IMG/VR virus record: IMGVR_UViG_2744054914_000003 | Source: a virus | Taxonomy: Duplodnaviria; Heunggongvirae; Uroviricota; Caudoviricetes | DNA: 42,128 bases | Direction: 5' to 3' (one strand) | Shown: piece after piece, positions 1 through 41,861 of the stretch | Layout: the number at the start of each line of letters is the position of its first letter | Position numbering within the stretch: the stretch's first letter is position 1 | Translations under genes and position numbers: made by a program | Notes under the pieces: generated by a model | What the model saw: only the letters and a program-made list of their open reading frames with translations | The model's database searches: none | What the model was told of the DNA's origin: nothing

Positions 1-270
<270 letters not shown>

Positions 271-4410: not shown

Positions 4411-4433
4411 TAGATTCACATGGGGAGGGGGCT

Positions 4434-5205: not shown

Positions 5206-5209
5206 ATTT

Positions 5210-5768: not shown

Positions 5769-5980
5769 TCTTCGACCGCCTTACGCTTTTCACGCATATT
5801 CTGCATCAGGCAAAAATCAGATCTGCGTTCACTCCATTCCTGATTCAGTTCGTGATGTGATTCGCGGTTGGCTTTTGCCCAGACCTTCGCTGCCCGGTCA
5901 TATTCGCCGGATTGTTCAAGTCGCAAAGCCTCCCTTGCAGCCCTGTAATAAAGTGGATTGTCCCGGTATTTAAATGACAT
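5765..5980 (-). CDS. Small hypothetical phage protein
   Basis: 71-aa ORF tightly packed between the polymerase and DUF4406-like genes, with overlapping stop/start. Confidence 0.4.
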   Translation of the reverse strand: MSFKYRDNPLYYRAAREALRLEQSGEYDRAAKVWAKANRESHHELNQEWSERRSDFCLMQNMREKRKAVEE

Positions 5981-5985
5981 AGGAG

Positions 5986-8049: not shown

Positions 8050-8095
8050 GTGTTTACCTTGGTTTTTATTCTATTAACTGATTAAAAGATTAATT

Positions 8096-8725
8096 ATGCA
8101 TATGATCCAATACTTGATTGACCATACAGAGCATCTGGAGAAAATAGCTGGATATATTTTTTCATGTTTGATTGTTATGGGAGTCTGGATAAGAAAGATC
8201 ATTTTTAATTATAAGTATAAAGAGCCTAAATATGTCAAGAAGTTAATTTTATATTTAGTTAAGTATGAACGTTATCTGGATAAGGAGGATAAGAGTGCCA
8301 TAGAAAAAAGAATAAATGATAAAATTATTCGTGATGCGCTGAAATTGCAATCTTCTTATAACCGAAGTGATGTTATTTACATTTGCAATAGATTAGAAAA
8401 AAGACAGTATATAAATCAGGTGATTAAGCTTCAGAATTATATAGAGAAAGATAACGGAGTGTTTTTCATCAATGTTAATTTTTCAGGTTTTTTATTTATT
8501 ATTAGTCGTCTGTTTTCCTTTCTGTGTTTTGTGCTGTTTATCCTTTTTTCTATTATCTGCATTATTTCCATAGGGCAAAATGAAGGCCTTTTAAATTATC
8601 TTGTGTATATGGTTATGACAATAGTTTTAGAGACTGTTGGTTTTTGGATGTATGATACTTTCCCGTCTAAGAAGAAGATCTGTGAACTAAATAAAGAATT
8701 GAGGAAGATTAAGATTCCTGAGTGA
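8096..8725 (+). CDS. Hypothetical membrane protein (AT-rich moron, opposite strand to the replication operon)
   Basis: 209-aa ORF in strongly AT-rich DNA between two minus-strand replication genes; hydrophobic segments at N-terminus and C-terminal third (FLFIISRLFSFLCFVLFILFSIICIISIG; LVYMVMTIVLETVGFWMY). Confidence 0.5.
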   Translation: MHMIQYLIDHTEHLEKIAGYIFSCLIVMGVWIRKIIFNYKYKEPKYVKKLILYLVKYERYLDKEDKSAIEKRINDKIIRDALKLQSSYNRSDVIYICNRLEKRQYINQVIKLQNYIEKDNGVFFINVNFSGFLFIISRLFSFLCFVLFILFSIICIISIGQNEGLLNYLVYMVMTIVLETVGFWMYDTFPSKKKICELNKELRKIKIPE

Positions 8726-8743
8726 TTATACGCCTAATCAGCA

Positions 8744-8762
8744 GCCCGGTATTTAACCGGGC
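8744..8762. terminator. Hairpin between convergent genes (possible bidirectional terminator, no clear U-tract)
   Basis: GCCCGGT-ATTTA-ACCGGGC, 7-bp stem, between the 8725 stop (+) and the 8778 stop (-). Confidence 0.3.
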
Positions 8763-8777
8763 GTCTATGAAGTAGGG

Positions 8778-9326
8778 TTAAATCAGTGCTTCAGCATCAG
8801 CACCTTCGCTGATATCGTCGAAATCGTCAGCGCTTGCCACTCCGCCGCCAGCGAATGCATCGCCGTCTCGCAGGAACTGGACTCCGCCGAGTGAGGCATT
8901 AATGCGTTTACCGAAATTATTGTCCTGTGCCCAGATATCGATAACGGCGTTTACATAGCACCCTGCATAGGGACGTCCATCAGCCTGAATAAGTGGCGAA
9001 CGATCGCGATCAAGAACAGCTGGGCGCGCTTTGTTAGCAGCATTCAGGAAGAAATTGCCGGGGAAGCCTTCATACTCTGCTTTTTCATCACCATCATGCA
9101 GGCACAGATTGAGTTTTTTCTCCAGTTGGTTATAAATGGGCTCCCACTTCTCTCCCCATTTTTCCTTCGCTACCTGCTTCATAGCTTTACGGATTTCTTC
9201 CAGTTGTGGGTGTTTGGGTGACATTAAAAATACTGCGGAGAAACGTGGATCGCCTTCGCCGTTTACAGTTTTAGCTTCAAACAGAGACGGGAAGGCCAGA
9301 CGAACATTGTTCAGCTTCAGTTTCAT
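8778..9326 (-). CDS. DUF2815-like phage protein (SSB-like, as recalled)
   Basis: 182-aa ORF with acidic C-terminal tail (DDFDDISEGADAEALI); sits between DUF2800-like and polymerase genes as in the recalled module. Confidence 0.6.
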   Translation of the reverse strand: MKLKLNNVRLAFPSLFEAKTVNGEGDPRFSAVFLMSPKHPQLEEIRKAMKQVAKEKWGEKWEPIYNQLEKKLNLCLHDGDEKAEYEGFPGNFFLNAANKARPAVLDRDRSPLIQADGRPYAGCYVNAVIDIWAQDNNFGKRINASLGGVQFLRDGDAFAGGGVASADDFDDISEGADAEALI

Positions 9327-9341
9327 GGGTATTTCCTTAAA

Positions 9342-10643
9342 TCAGATGAGGTCTGCGGTTAGCGTATCGTCGGATACGTCGTCGAAATCATTTACAGGGT
9401 TGATATTGAGTGCGGGGCGTGGGTCTGACTCGGGAACGATGGTGGGTTTACCATCAGCTCGTGTTATCAGTGCCTCGACTTTTGACCAACGGCGCGGACT
9501 GGCCTTTTTGATAAGTTTTTCGGCTTTTGTGGGGCTAATAAGTTTAAAGTCGAATACTTCTTCAGTTTTGTACCTGAACTGGTCCTTCAGAAGTGCGCGA
9601 GCTGCCTCTTCATCACTCCAGGCCCGGTTACCTTGTTTTCCTGTTACCAGTTTAAACCCCGGTACCGGATGTCCGGCATTGAGTTCATTGTGAACCCGGT
9701 CTCGTACTGCCTTTAGCCAGGATTCAATAAAGTCGGCCTGGCTATAGATCTCCGCAAGCTGCTCAATGGTTAACAGAGGTACACGTGCGCTGGCATTGGA
9801 GATTATTTCGCTGACAGGCTTTGTCAGATCTTCAAAATCGCTGGCCGCTGTTTGTAAATGCTGCATTTTCTGGGCAGTGCAAATAGCTTTTGCTTTACAG
9901 AAGCGGCACTGTTTTTCTCCAGGTATGAAGTTTTCCAGCGGTAGTGTCTCAATGCCTTCGCATTCAGCAATATTGAGAACAAGGATCGCACTGGTTGCGG
10001 CCTCCAGTGCCCGTTCACCGAAAGACTGAAGTTCCTGTACGGTTAACGACCATTCTGAAACGTGGTTGAGCCTTGGCTGGTGAATAAATAATCTTACAGT
10101 CTCAAAGTCATACAGCATGCTGAATTGTTCGAGCGCACCCAGAGCATACAGTTGTAGTTGCTCATTTTGTTCTGCATCAATGCGGACGCCTTTGCCATAT
10201 TTCAGGTCGTGGATTTGTAATTCGCTACCAGCAATGATTATGCCGTCGGCAGTTCCGAAAGATTCTTCCACACCCGTTATATGTGAGAAATCAACACGTT
10301 GTTCAACCAATAGTTCATTATTCTGTGCAAGAGTCCAGACCGTATCAACATACCGGCCAACGGCTTCGACCATTTCATCATCCACCTGTGGGCCAGATGT
10401 ATCATCAGGATTTTCGCGAAGGGGGTATGAGCCGAGAAACATAGAAACATTGCATCCGGCGTAGTGTTCCGGGTAGCTTTGCCTGTTTCGTAGAACTTTT
10501 TCAGCAAGCGCGTGCGCTGCAGTGCCCTCGATTGCAAAAGTTGTTTCTTTATCCGGTTGTGTGGCCTCCAGCGCCAGACTTCCTGGGCAGCGCATCCATC
10601 GATGCGCTGATGATGGAGAAAGTTGTGCATGAACGTCTGGCAT
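9342..10643 (-). CDS. DUF2800-like PD-(D/E)xK nuclease (Cas4-like)
   Basis: 433-aa ORF with N-terminal [15 protein letters not shown] motif and C-terminal cysteine cluster ([10 protein letters not shown]). Confidence 0.65.
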
Positions 10644-10645
10644 GA

Positions 10646-11548
10646 TTAACCCTCCAGTGCTTTTTCAGCCAGGGTGATTACTTCAGCGAGATTTTCATCC
10701 GTTACTTCACCAAGTTTCCTGGCTCCCTGTTTTTCCAGAATTGCAATAGCTTCTGCCCGGTAACCCCCTTTTGCTAACTGGAGGATCAACCCTTCAGCTT
10801 GTTTGCGTAGTGCCGCGAAATCAATTGTATGGTCATCTTTGGCGTCATGATTCTGGCTGGAATTTGCTGCGTCTCTGCGTGCAAATTCTTCTTGCAGCTG
10901 AAGGTACTCAACACGGTTGATCTCGATATGGCCTTTTTTCAGCATCTCGTTCAACTTGCGTAAGGTGTGGAGTTCACTGGCTGCTGTGCCGGATACATTT
11001 TTGACGTAAAACGGCCCCGTGCGTTCTCCATCTTTGTTACTGGCCTTTTTCGGCTTAACTTCATCACGCCCATCCGCAGGTGCATCAAGTAGCTGCTCGG
11101 CAAAAACACGTCGCTCGCCGATGGTTGGCAGGTCGTCCCAGAACTTAAGGATGTTACGGGACAGGTCCAGGAGAGCAGGTTTAAGCAGCGCCCTGGCTCG
11201 TTTGACGCCCTGCAATGCGCTGTCGAGAGCATCAATCTGAACTACTCGTTTATCGCCTTCAGCATCACGGTAGGCAACAGCACGTTGCAGCATGTCTTCT
11301 GTGATAGGGGTGGCTACCGGGTAGAAACCAGCCAGTGCGATAACGTCGCTGAACTCCAGATCATCCAGTGTCATTGCCGCTGACATATTTTCAGTTTCAG
11401 TTGCTGTATCCCGACATTCCTGCACTCGTGAAATCGTGTCAGGATGCATAACAATGCCTGATGCCATTGTGCGGATAAGACGTTCAAGCAGCGCATTATG
11501 TTGTGCCAGAAGTTGATTATTAAGTTCGAGACTGGTTTCTAAACTCAT
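10646..11548 (-). CDS. Hypothetical early phage protein
   Basis: 300-aa ORF, same strand and contiguous with the replication module; no motif recognised. Confidence 0.45.
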
Positions 11549-11727
11549 ACTGTGGTCCTCGCTACAAGGAGAATGAAAGTGATGATCAGACCGAGCGCAG
11601 TGGCAACGGCCAGACCGGTCATCAAATCGAAGTTTTTACGGCGATAACGGAGAACATCGCGCCCCGTCAGTCGATGGGGGTATTCAGGTTTCATCGGTTG
11701 TATTCCTTTTTTCATATCGGGGAGCAC
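11545..11727 (-). CDS. Small membrane protein (first gene of leftward early operon)
   Basis: 60-aa ORF with C-terminal hydrophobic helix (LAVATALGLIITFILLVA). Confidence 0.35.
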   Translation of the reverse strand: MLPDMKKGIQPMKPEYPHRLTGRDVLRYRRKNFDLMTGLAVATALGLIITFILLVARTTV

Positions 11728-11756
11728 GCTGTTGCGAGTGCGCTTTCAGACATAAA

Positions 11757-11790
11757 AAAGCCCGTCACTTGAGGCGGGCAAAGGCTACAC
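11757..11790 (-). terminator. Putative rho-independent terminator (minus strand)
   Basis: On the minus strand: GCCCG...CGGGC stem followed by TTTTTTAT. Confidence 0.4.
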
Positions 11791-11850
11791 ACAGCAATTA
11801 CTTGGATGTCAGCGAATGCCTGCTTTTAACCACGTCAGACGAGATGGCTC

Positions 11851-11901
11851 TCTCTGTACCCCTACAGCGAGAATTCGGCTAATATCTCTTTACCCCTATA
11901 G
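11851..11901. promoter_or_regulatory. Two 17-bp direct repeats (TCTCTKTACCCCTAYAG), putative operator or promoter element
   Basis: Copies at 11851-11867 and 11885-11901, two mismatches, immediately upstream of the 11919 start codon. Confidence 0.45.
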
Positions 11902-11918
11902 TTTTAGAGAGAATTAAG

Positions 11919-12443
11919 ATGTCTGAAGAAAAAGGACTTGTACGGCGTATAACTGAGGCGGCCACTAGTGCTGGTGGTGCTTTGAAAGGTGCTGTTGATT
12001 TAGCAAAAGAAGTTAATGCGTTGCAGGTGGATTACAATGTTAAAAGTAAAACTATCGATCTACTTGATAAACTAATTGATGCGCGTACTGGACAATTCGC
12101 ACTAACGGAGCTTTTGAACGAAGCTAAACAGCGCATTGTTGAACTCGAATCCCTTCTGGAAAAGAAACAGGATTGGGATAGTGAGAAAATGAACTATGAA
12201 ATGTACCACCCGATTACCAATACGGTGGTCTATGTACTGAAGCCTACTGACGATCCTGAGTTCAAGCCTCATTATCTTTGTACTACATGCTATGAGTCGG
12301 GTATGAAGTCTATACTTCAATACCATACTTCTAATGCCGCTTATAAAATTCTCAAGTGTCATAAATGCTCCGCTGAATATAAATTTCCCCGAAATATAGA
12401 AGTCAGTGGCAAAACTCCTGCACCGTTACAACCTGCCAGATGA
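11919..12443 (+). CDS. Hypothetical coiled-coil protein with C-terminal CxxC...CxxC zinc ribbon (immunity-region moron)
   Basis: 174-aa ORF, ATG at 11919; motif CTTCYESG...CHKCSAEY; about 40% GC; opposite strand to flanking early genes and cI. Confidence 0.55.
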   Translation: MSEEKGLVRRITEAATSAGGALKGAVDLAKEVNALQVDYNVKSKTIDLLDKLIDARTGQFALTELLNEAKQRIVELESLLEKKQDWDSEKMNYEMYHPITNTVVYVLKPTDDPEFKPHYLCTTCYESGMKSILQYHTSNAAYKILKCHKCSAEYKFPRNIEVSGKTPAPLQPAR

Positions 12444-12537
12444 TTAGCAGTTCTCTTTGGTGGTGGTGTAGTGGTAGATGCTGAACTTCGGATTGACTCA
12501 ATGGACTGATCTTCACCCCACCCCAAAAGGAACTAAG

Positions 12538-12558
12538 CGCCCCATCGTCGGGGCGTTT
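12538..12558 (+). terminator. Weak putative terminator downstream of the 11919-12443 gene
   Basis: CGCCCC-ATCGTC-GGGGCG hairpin followed by a short TTT run. Confidence 0.35.
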
Positions 12559-12809
12559 CAACTTGCGTGACTTATCAGTTTGTCGCGGTGTTGTCCTCTA
12601 CGCTTACCGTACGCATACGGACTCGGCGCTTACCTCGATCCCATCGGGTGCTATTTCGTTTTGCCAGGAGTACTGCGGCTTACCTGTCACGCGGTTCAGT
12701 TTGTTAAAGAGCCAGTATTAAAAAACGCATTAATTATGCGATATCGTATTTATATGCGTTATGGGATTTTGTGTCAATACGAAAATGAATTATTTTGCAA
12801 ATAAGAAAA

Positions 12810-12836
12810 CCGCCCTTGTGGAGAGCGGTTTGATCA
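12810..12836 (-). terminator. Putative rho-independent terminator of the repressor gene
   Basis: On the minus strand: AACCGC...GCGGTT stem followed by a U-rich run, directly after the cI stop at 12862. Confidence 0.45.
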
Positions 12837-12861
12837 GAAGTAAGTTATCAGACTGTAAAGG

Positions 12862-13536
12862 TTAGTACATACGTAGCGCGGATTTGGCGATCCCCGCCAC
12901 GTAATGGATTTTTTCAATGTTTTCGCGTGGTACTCTGACTGGTGGATGATCTTCATTTACAGACATTAGATGGAACAGGCCATCGCGTTCGAACAAGAAG
13001 GTTTTAACCATGACCTCACCTTCCCGGGTAACCACAAGTACTTCATCACCAGGAGTGTAGTCGTGGTTGGGTTCGACGATTACGAACTCCCCCTCTTTGA
13101 TTCTAGGCATCATTGAATCACCAACACATTTCAGGGCGTATGCATCTTCATCCTTTGTCGGCCAGTATATGAAACCATCACTGCTACCTACTGAATATTG
13201 GGTGTCGCTCCAAAGTCCTCCAACGCCTAGCTGAGTGTTTCCCAAAACAGGTACTTTATTAAACCTAAGAGAAATATACGTTTTTATACCTGTCGCGTCC
13301 TCTTTCTCCAGTTCTTGAAGGCTCCTTTCTGCCAAGTCTATTGGTGACACGTGGAAGTAGTCGGCGATCTGCTTTAACGTTGCGTATTTCGGATCTTTCA
13401 CCTCTCCTGATACCAGCCTGTGTAGCGTTGGTTGGTTCAGCTGTAACCGACGTGCCAGCTCAGTTATCGAGCTTATCTTGGCTTTGTCCATCAGGTACTT
13501 GATGTTTTGAGAAAGGATATCGGTAGTATCAATCAT
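12862..13536 (-). CDS. cI: CI-like phage repressor (HTH N-terminus, S24 LexA-like peptidase C-terminus)
   Basis: 224-aa ORF; HTH region (SITELARRLQLNQPTLHRLVSG); S24-type domain with Ser (GDSM) and Lys (VMVKTF) regions; divergent from a cro-like gene. Confidence 0.85.
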   Translation of the reverse strand: MIDTTDILSQNIKYLMDKAKISSITELARRLQLNQPTLHRLVSGEVKDPKYATLKQIADYFHVSPIDLAERSLQELEKEDATGIKTYISLRFNKVPVLGNTQLGVGGLWSDTQYSVGSSDGFIYWPTKDEDAYALKCVGDSMMPRIKEGEFVIVEPNHDYTPGDEVLVVTREGEVMVKTFLFERDGLFHLMSVNEDHPPVRVPRENIEKIHYVAGIAKSALRMY

Positions 13537-13677
13537 TTGGATTCATCCATGTTGTATACAGGGACGGTGATTATGCGTTATCGGATATTTTAATCTAGGA
13601 TGACATAGAATTGCTGTATTGCTGAGTAATCCGTTTTCGTATAAATTTGCGCTATAGACGAAAGTGGAGACTTAAAT
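13537..13677. promoter_or_regulatory. Divergent promoter/operator region between repressor and cro (PRM/PR-like)
   Basis: 141-bp AT-rich intergenic region between divergent HTH regulator genes, with short palindromes (TGTATACA; TTTCGT...ACGAAA). Confidence 0.5.
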
Positions 13678-13878
13678 ATGTCCGGACTAACACCACAAGA
13701 GATGGTCAAAAGCTTGATTGATTCAGGGTATACCCAAAACCAAATTGCCGAAATTGCAGGCGTGAAGCAGTCTTCTATTAGTCGGCTTCTTACCGGGGTT
13801 CATTCTGACCCTCGCTTTTCTACAGTACGTGCGATAGAAAAACTTTTTCAGGAAGTGACAGCTAGACAAAAGGTGTAA
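13678..13878 (+). CDS. cro: Cro-like HTH regulator
   Basis: 66-aa ORF with HTH (YTQNQIAEIAGVKQSSISRLL), first gene of rightward early operon. Confidence 0.7.
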   Translation: MSGLTPQEMVKSLIDSGYTQNQIAEIAGVKQSSISRLLTGVHSDPRFSTVRAIEKLFQEVTARQKV

Positions 13879-13881
13879 CCC

Positions 13882-16068
13882 ATGTCCGATAGCAAACCAT
13901 GGGGAGCTACGCCTGATGAGTGGTTTCATTTCGACCTGGTATTGGGGCGGACTGCTCATCTTCTCCCAGTTGTATGTAACCCCAGTGCGACCATATCCCC
14001 TGATAGTAAATTGAAAGCGTTGGGTAAGACGCCGAGTCGCTATAACCGGGACCGCCAGGTCACAGGTATTGCTCAATGGACCGGGCATGTTGTTACTGAG
14101 CATGATTTTGCCCGCTGGTCGAATGAACCGGATTATGGCATCTGCGTGCGTACAGGCCATGGCTGGCTGGCGCTGGACTGCGATAGCGAAGATGAAGACA
14201 TTCAGGCAGATATTCGCAAAACACTTGTGCAACTTCTGGGTGAGTCGCCGCCGCGACGCTGGCGAGCAAACAGTAATAAGTGTCTGTATCTGCTGGCCGT
14301 TGATGGTGATTTCCGTAAGCGTATCCATCGCCTGGCGGGGGATATGGGCATTATCGAGTTGCTGGCGAACGGGCAGCAGTTCGTTGCCTGTGGTACGCAC
14401 AGCAGCGGCGCGCGTATTGAATGGGACGGTGGTTTGCCGGATGAACCTCCGGCTATTACAGGTGAGCAGCTTGAAACGCTGTGGCAGCGCCTGGCTGAAC
14501 AACTCCCTGTGTCGGTAACCACCGAAGCGGGCAACACGAAGATGCGCGACCGTTCAGCATTCACGCCCGGCGCGACGGATGATACAGCTGAATATCTTGA
14601 TGCCAATGGCTGGACGCTGCTGGATGGCGCAAACGGTGAACGATATATCCGCTGTCCGTTTGAAGACGGCCACAGTAGCGGAGGCGATCCAACAAGCACA
14701 GTTTATTTTCCTGCGGGAACCGCAGGCTTTGAGCAGGGGCATTTTAAATGCCTGCATGCCAGTTGCGCGCATCGTGATGACGGAGATTTCCTGAATGCCA
14801 TCGGGATCCGCAACGACGATTTCGAAGATCTGACCAGCATCGAAGTGGCGGAACCTTTACCGCTGCCTGCTTTCGAGCGTGATAAATGGGGGCGTATCGA
14901 GGCAACCATCAGCAATGCAGCCAAAGCAGTAGTACGCTCTGATTTTGTGGACATCGATATTCGCTTTGACCAGTTCCGCGACGAAATCATGTTTGCCCCG
15001 GCAGGATCCGGACAATGGCGGGCATTCACCGATGCGGATTATGCGCGCCTGCGCATCACGATGGAAAAGCGGGGATTTAAACCTGTTGGCCGTGAACTTA
15101 TTCGCGATGTGGTGTTACTTGCAGCCGATGAACAACCATTCGATTCAGCGATCACCTGGCTGAACGGACTGGAGTGGGATGGCGTGCCGCGCATCGAATG
15201 TTTCTACCATACGCACTTCGGTACCGCCGACACGCCTTATACCCGTGCGGTGTCTATGTACATGTGGACCGCGTTGGCGGGGCGAGTACTGGAGCCAGGC
15301 ATCAAAGCGGATATGGTGCCGATCCTCGTTGGTCCGCAGGGCTGCGGTAAGTCTTCCGGAGTGGAGGCACTGAGCCCTGATCCTGCGTTTTTTACTGAAA
15401 TCTCTTTTGCCGAAAAAGACGATGATCTCGCTCGAAAAATGCGTGGTCGGCTGGTGGCAGAGATTGGTGAACTGCGCGGACTTAATACCAAAGAGCTGGA
15501 GTCAATCAAAGCGTTTGTGACGCGTACTCACGAAAACTGGATCCCGAAATACCGGGAGTTCGCCACCCAGTTTCCTCGTCGCCTGGTGTTCGTTGGTACC
15601 ACTAATGAGGACGAATTCCTTGCGGACAAGACTGGTAACCGTCGCTGGCTCCCCGTGGAAGTGTCGAAAGTCGACGTGAAAGCGATAAAAAGAGATCTCC
15701 TTTTACTTTGGGCTGAGGCTCGTGAGGTGTTTCAGCGTCTGGGGGGTATCCAGTTCCGTGAGGCTGAACAACTGGCAGCGAGTGTCCATGAACAGTACAC
15801 CATCAAGGATGCTTGGCTTGAAACGGTAGAGAAATGGCTCGACACGCCCGACCTGATGACTAATGAACTTCCGCGAAATTGCGAATTTTTACGCGCAAGT
15901 GATGTTTTGCGTGATGCGATTGGGCTAAATCCTGACCGCATCGGAAAACGCGAAGAAATGCGAATTAGTAATGTTTTGCAAAATTGCGGGTATAAGCGTG
16001 CCCAAAGGCGAATTGGGGGGAAAAAATGCAAGGTTTGGGAACCGCTGGAACCACGCGGAACCACCTAG
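13882..16068 (+). CDS. Replication initiator: Prim-Pol-type primase fused to P-loop NTPase (VirE/D5-like helicase)
   Basis: 728-aa ORF; Walker A (LVGPQGCGKSS) in C-terminal half; N-terminal half with acidic Prim-Pol-like motifs; iterons overlap its 3' end. Confidence 0.75.
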   Translation: MSDSKPWGATPDEWFHFDLVLGRTAHLLPVVCNPSATISPDSKLKALGKTPSRYNRDRQVTGIAQWTGHVVTEHDFARWSNEPDYGICVRTGHGWLALDCDSEDEDIQADIRKTLVQLLGESPPRRWRANSNKCLYLLAVDGDFRKRIHRLAGDMGIIELLANGQQFVACGTHSSGARIEWDGGLPDEPPAITGEQLETLWQRLAEQLPVSVTTEAGNTKMRDRSAFTPGATDDTAEYLDANGWTLLDGANGERYIRCPFEDGHSSGGDPTSTVYFPAGTAGFEQGHFKCLHASCAHRDDGDFLNAIGIRNDDFEDLTSIEVAEPLPLPAFERDKWGRIEATISNAAKAVVRSDFVDIDIRFDQFRDEIMFAPAGSGQWRAFTDADYARLRITMEKRGFKPVGRELIRDVVLLAADEQPFDSAITWLNGLEWDGVPRIECFYHTHFGTADTPYTRAVSMYMWTALAGRVLEPGIKADMVPILVGPQGCGKSSGVEALSPDPAFFTEISFAEKDDDLARKMRGRLVAEIGELRGLNTKELESIKAFVTRTHENWIPKYREFATQFPRRLVFVGTTNEDEFLADKTGNRRWLPVEVSKVDVKAIKRDLLLLWAEAREVFQRLGGIQFREAEQLAASVHEQYTIKDAWLETVEKWLDTPDLMTNELPRNCEFLRASDVLRDAIGLNPDRIGKREEMRISNVLQNCGYKRAQRRIGGKKCKVWEPLEPRGTT

Positions 16069-16227
16069 AAGAGAAGGTGGTTCCACCTTGCAGACCTTGT
16101 GGCAAGCGGGGCGGAACTACTGGAACCACTGGAACCGCCTTTCTACTAGAAACCCCATATATATATATAAGTCGATTGAGGGAAAGGTTAGGAAAAGGTG
16201 GTTCCAGGTGGGGGCAGGTGGTTCCAC
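16038..16227. repeat. Iteron-type replication origin: about 9 copies of GGAACC(A/G)C in both orientations around an (AT)n tract
   Basis: GGAACCAC/GTGGTTCC copies starting at 16047, 16057, 16077, 16123, 16198 and 16218, with variants at 16038, 16114 and 16132; ATATATATATATA at 16157-16170; overlaps and follows the 3' end of the initiator gene. Confidence 0.6.
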
Positions 16228-16356
16228 TCCGAATTAGCAACTTTTTGCATGTTGATACATGCAATATGCGGATCGGAACTGCGTTATCCACACCCACGGA
16301 TAAACAGACGTAGTTCTCAGAAAAATTTTTCGTAGCAAAACGTAGAGGTCAGAGCT

Positions 16357-16791
16357 ATGCGTAATATTCAACAGGTTTTAGAGCGCTGGGGTGGATGGGC
16401 TGCCGATAGCAACACCACAGTGAGCTGGGCTCCAATAGCGGCGGGATTTAAAGGGCTGGTAGTCAGCAGCTCGCCTGGCAGGCTGAGTTGCTGTGACGAC
16501 GATGGCCTGATTATCGATGCTTGCGTCTGTCGGCTGCAGCAGGTCCGTAAGCCTGAGGAACTGGACGTCATTATGCTGTACTACGTCTACGGGTTAAGCA
16601 AACGTGAGATAGGGCGGCGGCGTCGCTGTTCTGAAGGATTTATCCGCCAGCAGTTGCAGGTAGCAGAGGGATTCATTGAGGGGTGTCTCTGCATGCTGGG
16701 TGTGAGCCTTCAGATGGATCCTGAGGTCGAAATTCAAAGGGATGAAAAAAGTATTAGTGCGCTACGCAAAAACTGCGCTACGCTGGTATGA
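16357..16791 (+). CDS. Q-like late antiterminator
   Basis: 144-aa ORF; N-terminus (MRNIQQVLERWGGWAA...AGFKGL...CCDDD) resembles Q proteins of lambdoid E. coli prophages as I recall them; immediately upstream of the lysis cassette. Confidence 0.65.
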   Translation: MRNIQQVLERWGGWAADSNTTVSWAPIAAGFKGLVVSSSPGRLSCCDDDGLIIDACVCRLQQVRKPEELDVIMLYYVYGLSKREIGRRRRCSEGFIRQQLQVAEGFIEGCLCMLGVSLQMDPEVEIQRDEKSISALRKNCATLV

Positions 16792-17070
16792 GTTGAATTT
16801 CTGACCTCAACGAAGAGCTCCAAATCATTGGGGCTTTTTTAATGCTCTATTCTCAGTAAAAGTTAATAAAACAGGGTTTTCGTCGCGAAAAAACGCTATG
16901 CAGTTTTTGCCCTTTTTTATGCACCTCTTATTCACTCGAATTTCGTCATTCTGGACCACTTAAGTTGATTAAATAGGCCTTTCATCGCAAATCTATTGCG
17001 AGCGGTGATCGTGTGGTTCCTATAACATACATTATGTTAAATAACTTCCTTTTTTAACAAATTTAACAAG

Positions 17071-33851: not shown

Positions 33852-34196
33852 ATGAGGGGTATTATTTTTCTGTTAGCTGCCTTTTCTGCGTGCAGCGCGT
33901 GGGCGGATGGCTTCACGGTTAAATGCGGTGGCTACACTATGGTTGCAAACCAGGGCGAGTTATCGACTATCAACGGTGAAAGAGTTACCTCTCAAAAAAT
34001 CACCGAACTGGGTACCAATGGTTTGAAAGTAGACATGGGGCTTATGCCTGCCAAAGACGGTAACAACTACGGCTTTGAATACATTCGTCGCCCTGGTACT
34101 GAAACGCGATTCCTGAATGTCCAGCTTCTGCAGAACAGCATGGATGCGCCGAAAATCATCGGATCTTTCCCTTGTAAAAAAGTGGCTGGGCGATGA
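33852..34196 (+). CDS. Secreted protein or lipoprotein with N-terminal signal peptide
   Basis: 114-aa ORF; signal-like N-terminus MRGIIFLLAAFSACSAWADG. Confidence 0.5.
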   Translation: MRGIIFLLAAFSACSAWADGFTVKCGGYTMVANQGELSTINGERVTSQKITELGTNGLKVDMGLMPAKDGNNYGFEYIRRPGTETRFLNVQLLQNSMDAPKIIGSFPCKKVAGR

Positions 34197-34361
34197 TTTT
34201 TGACGTCCATAATATTATGGATGAACTGTTGCCAATTGCGCTAAATTTAACAAAATAATACTGGTTAACGCATTTTTTGAACCATCTGTACACAGTAGTT
34301 GTCTATACTTTACCTTAAAGGTAAACTCTGCGCTCCACTGATGTTCACTATGGGAGGGGAT

Positions 34362-34601
34362 ATGAGGAAAATCGTTAATCGTTACTTAGCCGCTGCCGGT
34401 AGTGTTATGGACATTATGCCGACTACAGATTACTGGCAATATGCTGCTTCTGGATCTGATTGTCGGGCAATAAGAAGTGATGTTAAAGTCATTGCAAGTG
34501 ACATGAACAGAGTTATCAGGTATGAGTTCAAAACCCCGCAAGCAGGCGGCCGTTCTCAAAAAGCATCAGGAAAACAAAGCGTCGCAAAAAGCCGTTCCTG
34601 A
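34362..34601 (+). CDS. Small hypothetical protein (uncertain; overlaps the next ORF in another frame)
   Basis: ATG at 34362 preceded by GGGAGGGG; longest ORF from 34299; AT-rich promoter-like region upstream at 34200-34300. Confidence 0.3.
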   Translation: MRKIVNRYLAAAGSVMDIMPTTDYWQYAASGSDCRAIRSDVKVIASDMNRVIRYEFKTPQAGGRSQKASGKQSVAKSRS

Positions 34602-35094
34602 TTCGGATGGTATCGACGAAGATATTGATTCCTCGGAATATGATGAGTCTCAGGAAGTAGTGGAAAAGCTGTCTGCAGTTGCCAACCTTGATCCTGAGCT
34701 AAAATCGAAGTTAACACCTGAACTTCTTGAGAGAGTTTCTAAGAACCCGAAGGTTATTGCCATGTTTCAGCAGGAGTCTTTTCAGGGACCACTCCCACCT
34801 CCTGCTATGCTCTTACAATATAATCAAATATTACCCGGCGGCGCTGAGAGAATTTTCAGGCTAACCGAAAAAGAGCAAGAGCATAGGCATAAGACGCAAA
34901 GTGATGCATTACTTGGTGCGGTTTCACGCGACAAACGTGGGCAATGGATGGGATTTTGCATTGCAATGGTAGTGCTTATAATGGCTGCGTTTTTTGCTAA
35001 TCGCGGTAACACTTGGTTCGCAGGTACTCTTGCTACTTTAGATCTCGTAGGATTAACTACAGTGTTTGTTTATGGTAGGAAGAAACCTAAATAA
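34522..35094 (+). CDS. Membrane protein with K-rich N-terminus and two C-terminal hydrophobic helices (tail-module moron)
   Basis: 190-aa ORF; hydrophobic segments (WMGFCIAMVVLIMAAFF; AGTLATLDLVGLTTVFVY); lower GC than flanking tail genes. Confidence 0.5.
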   Translation: MSSKPRKQAAVLKKHQENKASQKAVPDSDGIDEDIDSSEYDESQEVVEKLSAVANLDPELKSKLTPELLERVSKNPKVIAMFQQESFQGPLPPPAMLLQYNQILPGGAERIFRLTEKEQEHRHKTQSDALLGAVSRDKRGQWMGFCIAMVVLIMAAFFANRGNTWFAGTLATLDLVGLTTVFVYGRKKPK

Positions 35095-37456: not shown

Positions 37457-38133
37457 GCAAATACACCGAACTAATCACGAACTACCACGCCACCAAACCT
37501 AAATTTCTTGCACATGTTGATCTGATGACCCGGCCGCTTATTGATGTTGCGGCTGCCACCAGAGGGCTGATTACTGTATTTGATATTGACTCTGCGGTTG
37601 GTGTGCAACTTGACATTCTTGGATTGTGGATCGGACGTAGCCGTGTTGTCAGCCAGCCTATCTCAGGTGTCTATTTCCGCTGGGATACCGACGGGCTTGG
37701 ATATGATCAGGGGGTATGGCAGGGGCCATATGATCCTGATTCAGGATACATGTATCTCAGCGATGAAACTTATCGTGTCATTCTTAAAGCGAAGATTGCG
37801 ATTAATAACTGGGACGGACGGAATGATTCGCTTCCGGCAATCCTTGACGCTGCAACAGCAGGATCCGGACTGCGAATGCAGATTGTCGATAACCAGGACA
37901 TGACGATATCGGTCTGGGTCTTTCCTGATACTGATATTTCAGATGTATCGCATGAGTTAATTGCTGCAATTAAACAGGGATATCTCACAGTAAAAGCCGC
38001 CGGGGTGTGGGCGGGTGGCATTGAAACACCTTCGGTGGAAACCCCATCGGAAGGTTCAAAATTTTTTGGTTTTGATATGGATAACGAATTTATCAGTGGT
38101 TTTGATCTAGGGGCATGGGGAGTATTACTCTGA
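37453..38133 (+). CDS. Baseplate/tail-fibre attachment protein (Mu gp48-like)
   Basis: 226-aa ORF between baseplate J and the tail-fibre gene; TGATG overlap with fibre start. Confidence 0.5.
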
Positions 38134-38804
38134 TGGCAAAAAATGACTTTAAAGCATTCGCAACGGGTAAAAATGCCAATGTTATGTCGCAGGAGGAATG
38201 GGAAGCGTTGCCTGCGCTTTTATCTGGATTTACAGCAGGGAAAGCCTCCAGTGCGCAAGTCAATAAGGTTATTCGGCAGGCCAGCTTTATTGCTGCAGCT
38301 CTGGCCCAGTTTGTAAGTGATAAAACGCAACGGGATGTGCTTGATAATGGTGATCTGCCCGGTTTTGTTGAATTGCTGGGATCGGGGTTTGCTGTTGAAT
38401 ACCTGAGCCGCAAGAATCCGTTTGGTGATATCAAATCGGATGGCACGGTGAAAACGGCTCTCGAAAACCTTGGTTTGGGAGAAGCGGCAAAACGAAATGT
38501 GGGAACAGGGGAAAATCAGATACCTGATATGTCATCATATGCATCAGGTTCAGGCTGGCGAAAAATGCCAGATGGTTCAATTGAACAGTGGGGACGAATT
38601 AGTTTTCCTGGTGAACACGGGCCTGTATCCGCCAATGTTTCATTCCCAATTCCATTTACACAGACACCGGGCATTGTAATTGTGTGCGATGGTGGTTTCG
38701 GGAGCGGGAATATGTGGGGGGCGACCAACTGGAGCACTACCGGCTTCATAGCTCACTGCAATTATGGTCTTGAAGGTGGTGCGTTTTTCGCTAAGGGCTG
38801 GTAA
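38133..38804 (+). CDS. Tail fibre (constant N-terminal part plus currently expressed variable C-terminal part)
   Basis: ATG at 38133 overlaps upstream stop; crossover site lies inside this ORF at 38458-38483; followed directly by a tail-fibre assembly gene. Confidence 0.7.
38458..38483. repeat. hix/gix-like inversion crossover site (left), inside tail-fibre gene
   Basis: CTCTCGAAAACCTTGGTTTGGGAGAA resembles hixL (TTCTTGAAAACCAAGGTTTTTGATAA) as recalled; core AAACC-TT-GGTTT. Confidence 0.7.
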
Positions 38805-39247
38805 TGATGAAATATCTGTACGTAAACAACCTGGCATATCCTTACGAACTTCAGTCTCTTTATGTTGAAAAAGGTGAATGGCCTGAAGAAAAAGGTGTTG
38901 ATATAGACGAAGTAATTTTCAGGGAATATTTCTATGATACACCACCAGAAGGAAAATACAGATGTGTCGGAGAGGATGGACTGCCTGCATGGGCAGATAT
39001 TCCTCCACCAACACGTGAAGAACAAATTGCATCAGCCGAAACTAAAAAGCAGCAATTGATTAACCAGGCCAACGAATACATCAACAGTAAACAATGGCCA
39101 GGTAAAGCATCAATTGGTCGTCTGAAAGGTGAGGAACTGGCGCAATATAATTTGTGGCTGGATTATCTGGACGCACTGGAACTGGTCGATACTTCCGGTG
39201 CGCCAGATATTGAATGGCCTACGCCTCCGGCAGTTCAGGCCAGATGA
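38804..39247 (+). CDS. Tail-fibre assembly protein (Tfa/U-like)
   Basis: 147-aa ORF with conserved Tfa C-terminal motif (YLDALELVDTSGAPDIEWPTPP). Confidence 0.75.
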   Translation: MMKYLYVNNLAYPYELQSLYVEKGEWPEEKGVDIDEVIFREYFYDTPPEGKYRCVGEDGLPAWADIPPPTREEQIASAETKKQQLINQANEYINSKQWPGKASIGRLKGEELAQYNLWLDYLDALELVDTSGAPDIEWPTPPAVQAR

Positions 39248-39821
39248 CGTCCGGCGCTGTGCTGGTATCTGTTGCCGTCACCGCGTCAATGTAATCCAGC
39301 ACAGCGTTAAGTCGGGTGTTTTCTGGCTGCGTCAGCTTCCGCCCAGCCTGTAATTTCAGTTGAATCAGACTGATGGAAGCCATTGCAGCATCAATCAGCG
39401 ACTGGCGCTGTGCTTCTGCCGCTTCTACTGCGGCGCTATGCTGTGCCTCGGTATCGGTCACCCATTTCTCACCATCCCATTTATCGTATGGCGTTAATGG
39501 GGCGATAGTGGTTGTATTTTCGGGGTAATCACCCGGAGTTGTGATTTCTTTGGCGTCTCCCGTTTCGGTGTTATAGACGATTTCTCCGCGATGGTCTGGC
39601 ACATATTCCCATGAGTTTAAATCCGCAGAGCGGCAGATGGCATAACCAGCTTTATATGTTCCTGGTGCATCTAAACAGGAACATGCCGGAATACCGACAC
39701 CAACAGCAAGATATTCAGTTGATGTGGAAATATATTCTCGTGTTTCACCATTATAATTATAGACAGTAATATCCCCCGCCTTCGTGGCAATAAACTCGCT
39801 ATTTAATACGGCATTATCCAT
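39219..39821 (-). CDS. Alternative tail-fibre assembly protein (Tfa'/U'-like), inverted orientation
   Basis: 200-aa ORF with matching Tfa C-terminal motif (LDYIDAVTATDTSTAPDVIWPELP); convergent with and overlapping the plus-strand Tfa. Confidence 0.7.
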   Translation of the reverse strand: MDNAVLNSEFIATKAGDITVYNYNGETREYISTSTEYLAVGVGIPACSCLDAPGTYKAGYAICRSADLNSWEYVPDHRGEIVYNTETGDAKEITTPGDYPENTTTIAPLTPYDKWDGEKWVTDTEAQHSAAVEAAEAQRQSLIDAAMASISLIQLKLQAGRKLTQPENTRLNAVLDYIDAVTATDTSTAPDVIWPELPEA

Positions 39822-40328
39822 TATGCAGCCCTCACGATGTAATTAAATGAAAGGTTACGAGGGCGCATTGATATCCATGCCCCGGTAAAATTATCCTCCG
39901 CTGTCCTTTGAGTACCCGTTATGGAGTTATCTGCTGATGCAGGAACATAATCGCTATTATTTCCTGCTTTAGGATTAGCTGGGTTTCCAACAGTTATAAC
40001 AGAATCAGCAGTAGCAAAAGCGATACCTACTTTGACATTAGTATTCAGATCGTAACCGTAATAATCCTGCAAAGCTGTACGAATAAATGTTGCAGCCTGA
40101 CCACTTAGCAATGAACGCCCCGTATCAATCCCTCTAGAATCATCCCAGCCACGAATAAACTCACCACGTAAATCAGGCAATTTATTTGTCGGGTAAGCCT
40201 TTGCCAGTTCCGGGTATTCTTCAGCAGAAAAAGCTGCTCCGTTGCATTTCAGCCAGCCTGTTGGAGGTGTCTCTGAAGGCCACGGAACAGGTGCACCAAC
40301 AGGTAATGCTGAACCTTCTCCCAAACCA
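39821..40328 (-). CDS. Alternative tail-fibre variable C-terminal segment (Sv'), promoterless until inversion
   Basis: Minus-strand ORF (39821-40369) with tail-collar-like motifs (PVGAPVPWPSETPPTGWLKCNGAAFS...LPDLRGEFIRGWDD); joins the constant part in frame at the crossover site. Confidence 0.65.
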
Positions 40329-40341
40329 ACGTTTAAGAAAA
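40315..40341. repeat. hix/gix-like inversion crossover site (right)
   Basis: Reverse complement reads TTTCTTAAACGTTGGTTTGGGAGAAG; core AAACC-AA-CGTTT, inverted relative to the left site. Confidence 0.7.
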
Positions 40342-40396
40342 TGCAGAGATTACGGCTAACTGGCATCATCCCCGGTTTTTATTCAGGGGATCCATC

Positions 40397-40657
40397 ATGC
40401 TTATTGGCTATGTCCGCGTATCAACAAATGACCAGAATACAGAATTGCAGCGTAACGCGCTGGAGTGCGCAGGATGTGAACTGATTTTTGAAGATAAAAT
40501 CAGCGGAACAAAATCAGCCAGACCGGGATTGAAAAAACTGCTCAGAACGCTATCAGAAGGAGATACGCTGGTTGTCTGGAAGCTGGACAGACTGGGGCGC
40601 AGTGTGCGGCATCTTGTCGTGCTGGTGGAGGAGTTGCGCGAACAAGGTGTTAATTTT
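40397..40657 (+). pseudogene. DNA invertase (Gin/Pin/Hin-family serine recombinase), truncated after about residue 87
   Basis: N-terminal 87 aa (MLIGYVRVSTNDQNT...LDRLGRS...REQGVNF) closely resemble Pin/Gin as recalled; similarity ends at about 40658 where AT-rich DNA begins; ORF runs on unrelated to 40792; C-terminal HTH domain absent. Confidence 0.7.
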
Positions 40658-40678
40658 AGTAGTTATGTTATTACAGGT

Positions 40679-40694
40679 GGGGGATTTCTCCCCC
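40679..40694. other. GC hairpin at the junction between invertase remnant and AT-rich cargo
   Basis: GGGGGA-TTTC-TCCCCC, 6-bp perfect stem, about 20 bp beyond the breakpoint. Confidence 0.35.
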
Positions 40695-40715
40695 TTATGC
40701 AGATTTTCTCGTTAA

Positions 40716-41561
40716 CTATTGGCGAAGTGGCCATATTTTTCTGTTTTTTAAAAAACTATCTTCAACTATATAACTGCAACAATGTTCACTAAGGCCATAA
40801 AAACTAATTATTCCATATTTATGAGAAGCTATATCAGACAGTTCTGCTAATACTGTGGCAAGCCAACGAGCGATGCTAAGAGAATAGAATCTTCCCCACT
40901 TTTGAACAATGGTATTTTGTCCAGTACGGATGGAGGCTGATATAAGGTCTTGCATAATGTTGGTACTTTCATTCATATACATGACCGTTGTATACGGTGA
41001 AAGAGTGGCATTGATAAACCTAGCATTTTCTTCAACACGTCTTTGTTCAACTGTATAATAATAATGTTTTTCAAGGATACTCTCGGCTACTTCTCCCCAC
41101 CATTTATTAATAGGTTCATTATTGGTTAAATTGGGGCTGCTTAATGAGGAGAAATTTGCGTAACGTCCCCGTCGGGCATCAGCAAAGGAATCTAAACATT
41201 CAAGTATTTTGTAGGTAATTTTATGTGTAGGACGTGAATATCTCAGAGATAGTTGCATTTTTTTAGAAATACTATCAACCTCGTTGGTTAATTCAATGAG
41301 CTTGTGTCCAAATTTTCTTACAATATTCTCGTCAGGCATTTTTCCTTTGTGTTCAATGGCATAGTGTGCAACAAGTATTAGTTTAGCAAGTCTCTCAAAA
41401 CCTACAGAAAGCCCAAAAAATGCTGTGTAATATTCACCTATTTTGTCTGCATAATTGGCTTTACCTATGGCTGTTGCCCCAGAACCAATGAGCTGTGTTA
41501 CTAAAGATGCTTCTCGGCCCAGAGCGTGCCATGCTGGAATATCCCAGGGATTTTTATTCAC
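40716..41561 (-). CDS. Hypothetical protein encoded in AT-rich cargo beyond the invertase
   Basis: 281-aa ORF with GTG start (forward CAC at 41559-41561); AT-rich; no motif recognised; does not match my recollection of McrA. Confidence 0.5.
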   Translation of the reverse strand: MNKNPWDIPAWHALGREASLVTQLIGSGATAIGKANYADKIGEYYTAFFGLSVGFERLAKLILVAHYAIEHKGKMPDENIVRKFGHKLIELTNEVDSISKKMQLSLRYSRPTHKITYKILECLDSFADARRGRYANFSSLSSPNLTNNEPINKWWGEVAESILEKHYYYTVEQRRVEENARFINATLSPYTTVMYMNESTNIMQDLISASIRTGQNTIVQKWGRFYSLSIARWLATVLAELSDIASHKYGIISFYGLSEHCCSYIVEDSFLKNRKIWPLRQ

Positions 41562-41689
41562 TTTATTATTTTCCTTTGCTCATAAATTTAAATTGTTTGA
41601 GTATCTCATAAAATATAAGGAGGTGGTTAAGGTTGTTGATCGCATATAATAGCTATTGAAAGTCAAGAACTCGGTTTTATGTTCTACCA

Positions 41690-41728
41690 CTAATTAATAT
41701 ATTGTGAGTCTGACAATATATTAATTAG
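41690..41728. promoter_or_regulatory. Perfect 16-bp inverted repeat with 7-bp spacer (putative operator)
   Basis: CTAATTAATATATTGT-GAGTCTG-ACAATATATTAATTAG, about 130 bp upstream of the 281-aa gene start. Confidence 0.55.
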
Positions 41729-41861
41729 TATGATCAAACCAGCCATCAACTGATTCCTTGTATCTTTCAGAGTCTCCAGAACAAAAGCCTTAACGAATTC
41801 CTTATTTGTGAGTGCATTACAAAAAGCCATTGTTGCAGGGAACGAGTATAAAACTCGCCAG

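Follow-up and report, generated by a model that had tools for sequence, protein, structure and literature searches.

The tail-fibre locus of an Escherichia coli prophage described here is probably a two-state inversion switch of the Din family whose own invertase is dead, and which is most likely flipped in trans by the invertase of other genetic elements. It lies in a 42,128-nt stretch of DNA (hereafter the window, i.e. the whole stretch analysed), and, judged by its sequence, it is a member of the known Gin/Cin/Pin/Hin (Din) switch family, closely related to the P segment of the E. coli K-12 element e14, because its left and right crossover sites match the e14 pix sites at 26/26 and 25/26 positions, respectively. 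Inversion of a 1.86-kb segment would join a constant N-terminus of 112 codons to either a gp53-like tip, as in the present orientation, or a tail-collar tip, as in the inverted one. The flipping would most likely be carried out by a serine invertase (PinE-like or PinQ/PinR-like) of another prophage or plasmid in the cell, together with the host Fis protein, while in helper-free cells the segment would stay in the orientation in which it arrived. Inversion in trans is the most likely mode since the resident invertase gene is truncated and both the sites and an enhancer-like stretch are intact. The features of the locus are as follows (coordinates refer to the window).

38133-38469, plus strand: constant N-terminus of the tail fibre (Sc), 112 codons, ending at the crossover; open reading frame (ORF) and translation, with PHROG tail-fibre families matching residues 1-120
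38458-38483: left crossover site, pixL-type, 26 bp, CTCTCGAAAACC TT GGTTTGGGAGAA, central dinucleotide at 38470-38471
38472-38804, plus strand: expressed fibre C-terminus (Sv) with a gp53-like C-terminal domain (Pfam PF21882, E=6.7e-07), giving a full fibre of 223 aa; RefSeq WP_046960514.1 in genomes A4 and M-17
38804-39247, plus strand: chaperone (tail-fibre assembly protein) of the expressed tip, its start overlapping the fibre stop (TAATG); Pfam Caudo_TAP, E=4e-33, and PHROG 188
39219-39821, minus strand: chaperone of the silent cassette, TfaE-like (Pfam Caudo_TAP, E=5e-32), 89.5% identical to TfaE of K-12
39821-40327, minus strand: alternative fibre C-terminus, silent in this orientation (Sv'), carrying a phage tail-collar domain (Pfam PF07484, E=6e-16), 57% identical to StfE of K-12
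40316-40341: right crossover site, pixR-type, 26 bp, TTCTCCCAAACC AA CGTTTAAGAAAA, central dinucleotide at 40328-40329
40397-40663, plus strand: truncated serine invertase (pin remnant), codons 1-88 of about 184, whose ORF runs on into unrelated sequence to 40792
40415-40486: stretch homologous to the recombinational (Fis) enhancer of P1 cin, inside the remnant and 86 bp from the right crossover, of putative enhancer function
40664-41846, minus strand: low-GC (36%) block of 1.2 kb that replaces the 3' half of pin, with a 281-aa ORF (40716-41561, minus strand) of no known family

An earlier note, made from the sequence alone, had placed an invertible host-range switch at 38458-40341, coordinates which coincide with the outer edges of the two crossover sites. 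The two inverted 26-bp sites with a common 15-bp core that it described are borne out by inverted-repeat arms at 38465-38484 and 40315-40334 (20 nt, 95% complementary) and by the 15-mer TTGGTTTGGGAGAAG, of which the 42-kb window contains just two copies, one per strand (38470-38484 on the plus strand and 40315-40329 on the minus strand); shuffled sequences give a chance expectation of 0.05-0.06 for the site matches (0.06 for the 15-mer with up to two mismatches). The non-palindromic centres TT and AA were likewise found on the plus strand, and the sites are, as is typical of the Din family, imperfect dyads with a common 2-bp core (TT and its complement AA). They had been called hix/gix-like, which is right as to the family, but their closer match is pix of e14. 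The left site was correctly placed inside the fibre gene, which as it stands spans 38133-38804, and the right site does precede the recombinase gene, with 55 bp between the site and the start codon at 40397; that gene, however, is not an intact invertase gene. The window has no third crossover site that could turn the switch into a multi-state one, since the Din-type half-site pattern matches only these two loci.

Between the sites, the two cassettes are convergent: a fibre C-terminus followed by its chaperone on the plus strand, and a chaperone with a collar-domain fibre C-terminus on the minus strand, pairs that the note had proposed and that the Pfam and PHROG matches support. Inversion in silico yields an uninterrupted fibre of 281 aa, and both reading frames cross the site as ...ENLGLGE..., so that the in-frame junction (LGLGE) claimed previously is indeed present; the fibres of 223 and 281 aa have residues 1-117 in common, through ...ENLGLGE. 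Both forms are annotated in natural genomes, with a RefSeq fibre CDS of 846 nt (281 codons, WP_021580412.1) in strain MS20658 and a 223-aa fibre CDS in strain A4. The locus thus has the design of a fibre switch, with the crossover inside the fibre gene and one N-terminus serving two in-frame C-termini, each with a chaperone of its own. The ORF of the silent cassette begins with a 14-codon leader from an ATG at 40369, outside the segment, as comparison with K-12 reveals also for stfE of e14.

The switch closes the late operon of what looks like an intact, complete SEN34-like myovirus prophage, inserted in yfhL of E. coli. The remaining phage genes of the window are all full-length matches to annotated intact CDSs and include a full set of virion genes. 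The virion and lysis module exhibits 81.7% identity over 68% of 24 kb to that of SEN34, a Salmonella phage (Brunovirus), and 97.8% identity to those of the E. coli prophage records vB_EcoM-611R5, -606R2 and -683R1; conservation extends to an 88-aa ORF at the prophage end. The truncated invertase and the 281-aa gene of the replacement block recur in the vB_EcoM-611R5 record, whereas SEN34 has a single fibre gene and chaperone followed by an acyltransferase gene, with neither an invertible segment nor an invertase. The window as a whole is a mosaic, identical to no genome of the collection and matched in full by no record; A4 and M-17 are 100% identical to it over the switch region and diverge elsewhere.

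Among the known switches, the closest relative is the P segment of e14 (pixL/pixR, stfP-tfaP / tfaE-stfE, pinE), with which the locus shares, besides the sites, the TfaE-like chaperone, the collar-domain tip and the leader of the silent cassette, the gene order, i.e. constant fibre, tip, chaperone, inverted chaperone and tip, and pin. The sizes are also similar, 1,797 bp having been reported for e14 (PMC12529663) against 1,860 bp in the window. However, e14 is a defective element at icd, its pin gene is intact, and the expressed tip of the window is only 39% identical to StfP, with a constant N-terminus that is unrelated before residue ~90. The G segment of Mu (gix; S/U and S'/U'; Gin) and the C segment of P1 (cix; Cin) have inverted 26-bp sites with AAACC-NN-GGTTT cores, a constant fibre N-terminus with alternative C-termini each accompanied by a chaperone, and an adjacent invertase gene that holds the Fis enhancer. 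The earlier comparison with Mu G, P1 C and e14 P is therefore justified by the sequences of Mu, P1 and K-12, in which we found the same site architecture, gix and cix being taken from the Mu and P1 records themselves. On the other hand, the core dinucleotide of Mu is TC/GA instead of TT/AA, the fibres and segments of Mu and P1 are much larger (3.0 and 4.2 kb), and Gin and Cin are intact, the 267 nt retained in the window having ~72% nucleotide identity to gin/cin. In its organization the switch is textbook biology, a near copy of the e14 P segment, and involves no new mechanism.

What sets the locus apart is its invertase. If the adjacent gene encoded a working invertase in cis, as the earlier note had assumed, the switch would be autonomous in the manner of Mu G and every lysogen would make both fibres. 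The position of the right site, just before a gene that over its first 88 residues is ~92% identical to PinE (as computed) and has the catalytic serine motif YVRVSTNDQ there, fits such a reading, as does the intact 184-aa PinE that related prophages keep in the corresponding position. Invertases of the Din family, however, are proteins of about 185-195 aa that comprise a catalytic domain, an oligomerisation helix and a helix-turn-helix (HTH) domain, and the adjacent gene does not encode such a protein: the Pfam Resolvase profile is matched at positions 2-98 of 145 only, the DNA-binding domain is absent (no Pfam hit to an HTH domain in the remnant gene), and RefSeq labels the gene as a pseudogene, "missing C-terminus". 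The sequence stops resembling pinE, gin, cin and every other intact invertase at ~40657-40663, and in an alignment to the Gin structure 4m6f identity is lost past residue 88. Searches with PinE (tblastn) revealed neither residues 89-184 nor a second serine recombinase in the window or the adjoining A4 flank, the best match being no better than E=0.2, and therefore the locus is not a self-contained switch. The missing part would also have contained the counterparts of residues 151, 154 and 155, through which Hin contacts Fis (PMC3798978). The truncation refutes the autonomous reading at the sequence level, the product of the ORF being a 131-aa fusion protein, and we give that reading almost no credence.

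The invertase gene has lost its 3' half, and with it the remainder of the catalytic domain, the helix for oligomerisation and the DNA-binding domain; the foreign 1.2-kb block stands in its place, so that the locus cannot flip itself. In MS20659, a relative inserted at the same att site, pinE is intact and the window becomes homologous again only from 41847. The 281-aa ORF of the block has no match in Pfam, NCBIfam, PHROGs or PADLOC. This truncation junction recurs in 43 of 5,426 complete E. coli genomes, among which the pin remnant is mosaic between lineages, so recombination is frequent at this locus; it could in principle shift segments between prophages. We considered, and rejected, an old age of the truncation on the basis of the 93% identity between lineages, since the differences are concentrated within the first ~200 nt of the remnant, whereas its final 65 nt and the cargo block hardly differ, a pattern that indicates recombination and not age.

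The retained part of the gene contains the enhancer-homologous stretch, which corresponds to the enhancer annotated at nt 19-90 of cin in the P1 record and is identical at 57/72 positions to P1, 58/72 to gin of Mu and 61/72 to pinE of e14. In the Hin system the distance from the site to the enhancer is ~100 bp (PMC3798978), and the enhancer-homologous DNA is retained here, its spacing from the right site being similar to the native one. A scan of 38000-41700 for promoters and terminators gave no more sites than in shuffled sequence.

To judge by genome comparison, the segment has nevertheless flipped in nature despite the truncated invertase. Three pairs of genomes carry it in opposite orientations: A4 and MS20658, WP3-W18 and 22AR0747, and 97-3250 and 8D. 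In each pair the flanks are 100% identical (370 bp on the left, including Sc, and 1,300 bp on the right, including the remnant and the junction), and the segment itself, from one central dinucleotide to the other, is 100% identical once reverse-complemented; the sequence of the window flipped in silico matches MS20658 at 100% over 3,601 bp. Within one lineage, in which all genomes are alike at 100% identity and coverage, the orientations are split 3 to 18, and in another lineage 5 to 4. Both orientations therefore exist across the natural genomes compared, with the exchange exactly at the sites, as expected of the Din family and of the two-state switch proposed earlier.

An alternative that we consider unlikely is that no inversion takes place in present-day hosts, and that the differences in orientation either predate the truncation or came by recombination with relatives. 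It agrees with the pseudogene status of the invertase, with the predominance of one orientation in 18 of the 21 genomes of the lineage mentioned above, with the lack of a detected helper in 13 of the 43 carrier chromosomes (see below), and with the strong mosaicism of the locus, which makes homologous exchange with relatives that have an intact pin possible. It is, however, difficult to reconcile with three independent pairs in which the remnant, the junction, the flanks and the segment are 100% identical and the exact site-to-site inversion is the sole difference. Exchange by recombination would need an identical donor in the opposite orientation, and therefore itself implies that inversion occurred after the truncation. 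Moreover, every carrier examined has both sites and the enhancer-like stretch intact, and in experiments a distant invertase has been reported to invert the homologous e14 segment in trans (PMC12529663).

That report makes flipping of the window's segment by a helper plausible: PinQ expressed from a plasmid raised the inversion of the e14 P segment to 88%, even though PinQ is only 38% identical to PinE and the P segment resides in a different prophage (PMC12529663). The inner repeat of the window's sites is the same as that of the e14 P segment, whose inversion is detectable in clonal cultures (PMC4272514). In Salmonella, Fin acts on the H segment, as the title of a paper by Kutsukake et al. 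states. The action of PinQ and PinR (of Qin and Rac) on e14 and of Fin on the H segment resembles the situation proposed here in that the invertase is encoded in a different prophage; however, in those cases the target keeps an intact invertase of its own (PinE or Hin, respectively), whereas the resident invertase of the window is dead and a helper would therefore be obligatory. A literature search for earlier cases of fibre switches with a truncated invertase that are flipped in trans found nothing specific.

Candidate helpers were counted in the carrier chromosomes (chromosomes only) by blastn with chimeric queries composed of the carrier-specific block and either the pin 3' half or pinR, which gives counts without coordinates. 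At least one extra locus resembling the Pin 3' half or pinR is present in 30 of the 43 chromosomes, and in the remaining 13 blastn found no Pin-3'-like or PinR-like locus; M-17 is among the carriers with several candidates. In the 100%-identical lineage, a candidate helper occurs in all three genomes of the minority orientation against nine of the 18 genomes of the majority orientation, a trend that is not significant (hypergeometric p ~0.17). No helper locus was found in A4, MS20658 or 8D by any of three chromosome searches, and since A4 and MS20658 are in opposite orientations, the helper model needs for them the additional assumption of a helper that is plasmid-borne, lost or more divergent, or else of inversion before the phage entered these strains.

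As to function, the e14 segment has been recently assigned a role in defence of the host against phage T2 (PMC12529663), and it may be asked whether the segment of the window serves the lysogen in a similar way. Inversion would then change the tip behind the leader ORF that starts at 40369, and the free fibre-tip protein would block the adsorption of other phages. The leader starts between the right site and the pin gene, at a position and in a start context that agree with stfE of K-12, after inversion it would be fused to the gp53-like tip, and the analogous chimeric e14 protein StfE2 is reported to block T2 adsorption (PMC12529663). Nevertheless, no promoter-like site for the leader ORF was found in the 55 bp that separate the right site from pin, the tips are only 39-57% identical to those of e14, and e14 is defective whereas the prophage of the window has full intact virion genes, so that a role of the fibre in the virion is the simpler reading. 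We therefore regard the defensive role as quite improbable here; defence and virion roles are not mutually exclusive. For the fibre as a virion component, the two alternative host ranges that the earlier note ascribed to the prophage are plausible in view of seemingly intact virion genes and of tips from two separate domain families. Like the identity of the helper and the dependence on Fis, a change of host range is an inference, drawn from homology.

We lean slightly towards a further reading, namely that the locus is an orphan switch that lost its invertase and kept its sites and enhancer-like DNA, and whose tip flips only when an invertase of the Pin, PinQ or PinR type is supplied by other prophages or plasmids, and is otherwise inherited unchanged. 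If so, the mobile elements that reside in a host would govern how one and the same phage varies in host range, and the family of 43 genomes, in which three sequence-identical lineages contain both orientations, would have recorded this dependence in nature. For annotators and for those who predict the host range of prophages, inverted sites and a "recombinase" beside a fibre gene need not mean self-switching, which is not to be assumed because the recombinase here is dead. The 43 carrier genomes constitute a natural experiment on the cross-talk between prophages, in which the segment appears to have flipped since the loss of the invertase, in agreement with recent reports that the invertases of one cryptic prophage invert the DNA of another. 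If the dependence on a helper is confirmed, the orientation of the segment could be used to read out the activity of trans-acting invertases in wild E. coli.

The switch is built around two inverted crossover sites, between which two cassettes, each with a fibre C-terminus and a chaperone gene, converge:

38133-38804, fibre gene of 223 codons, containing the left site (ORF and Pfam)
38458-38483, left crossover site, 26-mer, CTCTCGAAAACC-TT-GGTTTGGGAGAA
38804-39247, Caudo_TAP chaperone gene of the expressed cassette, its start codon overlapping the fibre stop
39219-39821, strand opposite to the fibre gene, second Caudo_TAP gene
39821-40327, strand opposite to the fibre gene, fibre C-terminus with a tail-collar domain
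40316-40341, right crossover site, 26-mer, TTCTCCCAAACC-AA-CGTTTAAGAAAA
40716-41561, minus strand, 281-aa ORF inside a low-GC block

A repeat finder returned 38465-38484 versus 40315-40334 (20 nt, 95% complementary) as the sole outstanding inverted pair of the region. The 15-mer TTGGTTTGGGAGAAG is made up of the central dinucleotide, inner half-site and a further base; each strand of the 42,128-bp window has one copy and no more, against a chance expectation of 0.06 matches even with two mismatches (dinucleotide-preserving shuffles). No third crossover site was found in the window, where the degenerate Din-type pattern TTCTCNNAAACCWWSGTTT matches these two loci only. The repeat search and pattern counts thus bear out the earlier note's inverted 26-bp sites with an identical 15-bp core and the centres TT and AA, and its 38458-40341 corresponds to the outer edges of the two 26-mers. 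It had also proposed alignment with known family sites: the left site agrees with the left site of the e14 P segment, read from the K-12 record, at 26 of 26 positions and the right with the right at 25 of 26, while the layout AAACC-NN-GGTTT is common to the window sites, Mu gix and P1 cix (read from the respective records), so that the closest kin is, more precisely, pix/e14.

The fibre gene closes the late operon, after the baseplate-J and DUF2612 genes; its product resembles phage tail-fibre families over residues 1 to ~120 and has a match to the gp53-like C domain at the C-terminus. In-silico inversion of 38470-40329 yields an unbroken 281-aa fibre, which has residues 1-117 (...ENLGLGE) in common with the present one. 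This flipped sequence is found at 100% over 3,601 bp in E. coli MS20658, where the RefSeq fibre CDS (846 nt, WP_021580412.1) has the same length. The domains and the flip confirm the anatomy proposed earlier, i.e. a left site inside the fibre gene, convergent cassettes and an in-frame LGLGE junction.

The "invertase gene" reported beside the right site is indeed Pin-like, but it is a pseudogene. The ORF from 40397 resembles Pin in its first 88 residues only, Pfam Resolvase covers profile positions 2-98 of 145, and the helix-turn-helix domain was not detected in it by the Pfam search. Nucleotide homology to K-12 PinE, Mu Gin, P1 Cin and one intact relative stops at ~40657-40663 in the alignment, identity to the Gin crystal-structure sequence (4m6f) is gone beyond residue 88, and PinE residues 89-184 have no tblastn match in the window or the adjoining flank. 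RefSeq, too, treats this DNA as a pseudogene, labelled "missing C-terminus", in genomes that include A4, M-17 and MS20658. The lost part includes the DNA-binding domain and, by position, the residues that in Hin contact Fis (PMC3798978). With the invertase a pseudogene the switch is not autonomous, and the locus is incapable of flipping itself.

MS20659, a relative at the same attachment site, encodes an intact 184-aa PinE but shares no homology with the window between a point inside pin and 41847, hence 40664-41846 replaced the pin 3' half and whatever came after. The block has 36% GC versus 46-51% in its neighbours, and its 281-aa ORF has no match in Pfam, NCBIfam, PHROGs or PADLOC. Sequence identity of the block across all 43 E. 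coli genomes with the same junction (carriers) is 98.5-100%, while in the pin remnant next to it up to 37 of 267 nt vary from lineage to lineage; the block has the look of a cargo gene, sited at the prophage end, that has spread recently. A near-perfect palindrome (41689-41729; ACTAATTAATATATTGTGAG / CTGACAATATATTAATTAGT, 20-nt arms, 95% complementary, 1 nt apart) lies between this ORF and a conserved 88-aa ORF; it may serve as an operator or be the scar of a recombination event. The pin remnant itself (40397-40663) is mosaic in comparison with loci L002, L006, L013, L014 and L018. One lineage shares the intact-pin allele over its initial ~195 nt, but is identical to the window over the final ~65 nt and at the junction; in another genome, PEC411, a patch at nt ~200-260 is divergent. 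Such a pattern points to recombinational exchange of pin alleles among different prophages.

Of 5,426 complete E. coli genomes, 43 have exactly this truncation junction, and the carriers examined have it at one and the same chromosomal site, beside yfhH. Three sequence lineages provided pairs of opposite orientation (A4 versus MS20658, WP3-W18-ESBL-08 versus 22AR0747, 97-3250 versus 8D), whose flanks and segments were compared separately. Within each pair the left 370 bp and the right 1,300 bp, including the pin remnant and junction, are 100% identical, and the segments (1,860, 1,824 and 1,613 bp, respectively) are 100% identical on opposite strands, end to end between the central dinucleotides. 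Among full-length 100% matches, orientations split 3 versus 18 genomes in one lineage and 5 versus 4 in another. Both orientations thus exist in nature, as had been predicted, joined exactly at the sites, and at least three precise site-to-site inversions occurred in DNA already carrying the dead invertase gene. RecA-type recombination between the 20-bp repeats is an unlikely source of such repeated, exact events at canonical crossover sites, and assembly artefacts would not yield complete, annotated, in-frame alternative genes. Both orientations are also seen, within close strains or substrains, among related prophages whose pinE is intact (E. coli BH100, where MG2014 and MG2017 are opposite to BH100N; RIVM isolates; O157:H7), and by this evidence the intact switch is active in the wild.

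On the simplest model, inversion depends on a helper: the segment would flip where the host supplies a compatible invertase and would be frozen elsewhere. Candidate helpers were counted with chimeric queries that keep the 43 carriers atop the match list, as extra loci per chromosome resembling the intact pin 3' half or K-12 pinR. At least one was found in 30 of the 43 chromosomes (several in M-17); for the other 13 the "none" is soft, the search covering chromosome records at nucleotide identities above ~65-70%. Plasmid-expressed PinQ, just 38% identical to PinE, is reported to raise inversion of the e14 P segment to 88% (PMC12529663), and the inner repeat of that segment is the same as in the window sites. 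Inversion of e14 has been seen in clonal cultures by whole-genome sequencing (PMC4272514). A4, MS20658 and 8D gave no helper-like locus in any of three such chromosome searches. A4 and MS20658, sequence-identical copies in opposite orientations with no detectable helper, are the weakest point of the helper-dependent model; the contrast fits arrival of the phage in already differing orientations, or later loss of a helper.

The prophage extends from a 38-bp att core (TTCACACATATCACAATTGATGCATTTTTTAGTGATTA, 214-251, at the 5' end of yfhL and inside it) to ~210 bp past the window end, the window stopping just short of attR, and occupies the yfhL-yfhH interval that is empty in K-12. It encodes an integrase, replication, lysis, terminase, head, sheath, tube, tape-measure and baseplate proteins. 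Almost all annotated CDSs of the M-17 copy align with the window over their full length and nearly without gaps; the exceptions are the antiterminator Q gene, whose allele is divergent (44% identity, 3 gaps), and five short CDSs for which no match was obtained. A4 (L004) and M-17 (L020) are 100% identical to the window over the inversion region, yet the early/regulatory half (1-16800) is mosaic, with blocks of 95-98% identity alternating with unrelated stretches. In the baseplate operon, 33852-35094 is a variable slot: here it contains a gene for a DUF2335 membrane protein and a 114-aa ORF whose N-terminus is signal-peptide-like, in relatives another gene, e.g. a DUF4282 gene in FDAARGOS_1059. 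The record vB_EcoM-611R5 (L016, GenBank ON470588) has the same truncated invertase; it is titled a complete phage genome, yet it holds host yfhH, pgpC and tadA past the prophage end and is therefore a predicted prophage region, not packaged DNA. Over the greater part of the virion module the prophage is 81.7% identical to Salmonella phage SEN34, which has one fibre only and lacks an inversion system.

By analogy, a role as a host-range switch is plausible: the two tips belong to different domain families and each is paired with a chaperone, as in the classic alternative-receptor design. Alternatively, a leader-fused fibre tip, as in the e14 chimera, may have a non-virion role. The 14-codon leader of the silent cassette begins outside the segment, as does that of e14 stfE, and the e14 chimera formed via its leader is reported to block T2 adsorption (PMC12529663), while a promoter scan found no promoter-like site for the leader ORF in the 55-bp gap between the right site and pin.

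The Mu G, P1 C and e14 P design invoked in the earlier note is recognizable in the sites and cassette layout, the e14 P segment being nearest: gene order, segment size and overlapping chaperone 3' ends are all as in the window, with TfaE 89.5% and the collar tip 57% identical, whereas the currently expressed tip is just 39% identical to StfP. The Cin enhancer is annotated at cin nt 19-90 in the P1 record, and its 72-nt homologue is kept in the remnant (40415-40486; 57-61 of 72 positions identical to the P1, Mu and e14 counterparts), separated from the crossover by 86 bp, similar to the native site-to-enhancer spacing of ~100 bp in Hin (PMC3798978). Judged by its sequence, the locus is of the Din type in sites, cassettes and orientation, with putative enhancer DNA retained and the resident invertase lost. 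It is a further example of a known switch type, with one modestly interesting feature, namely what comparative genomics suggests to be an obligatory dependence on invertase supplied in trans.
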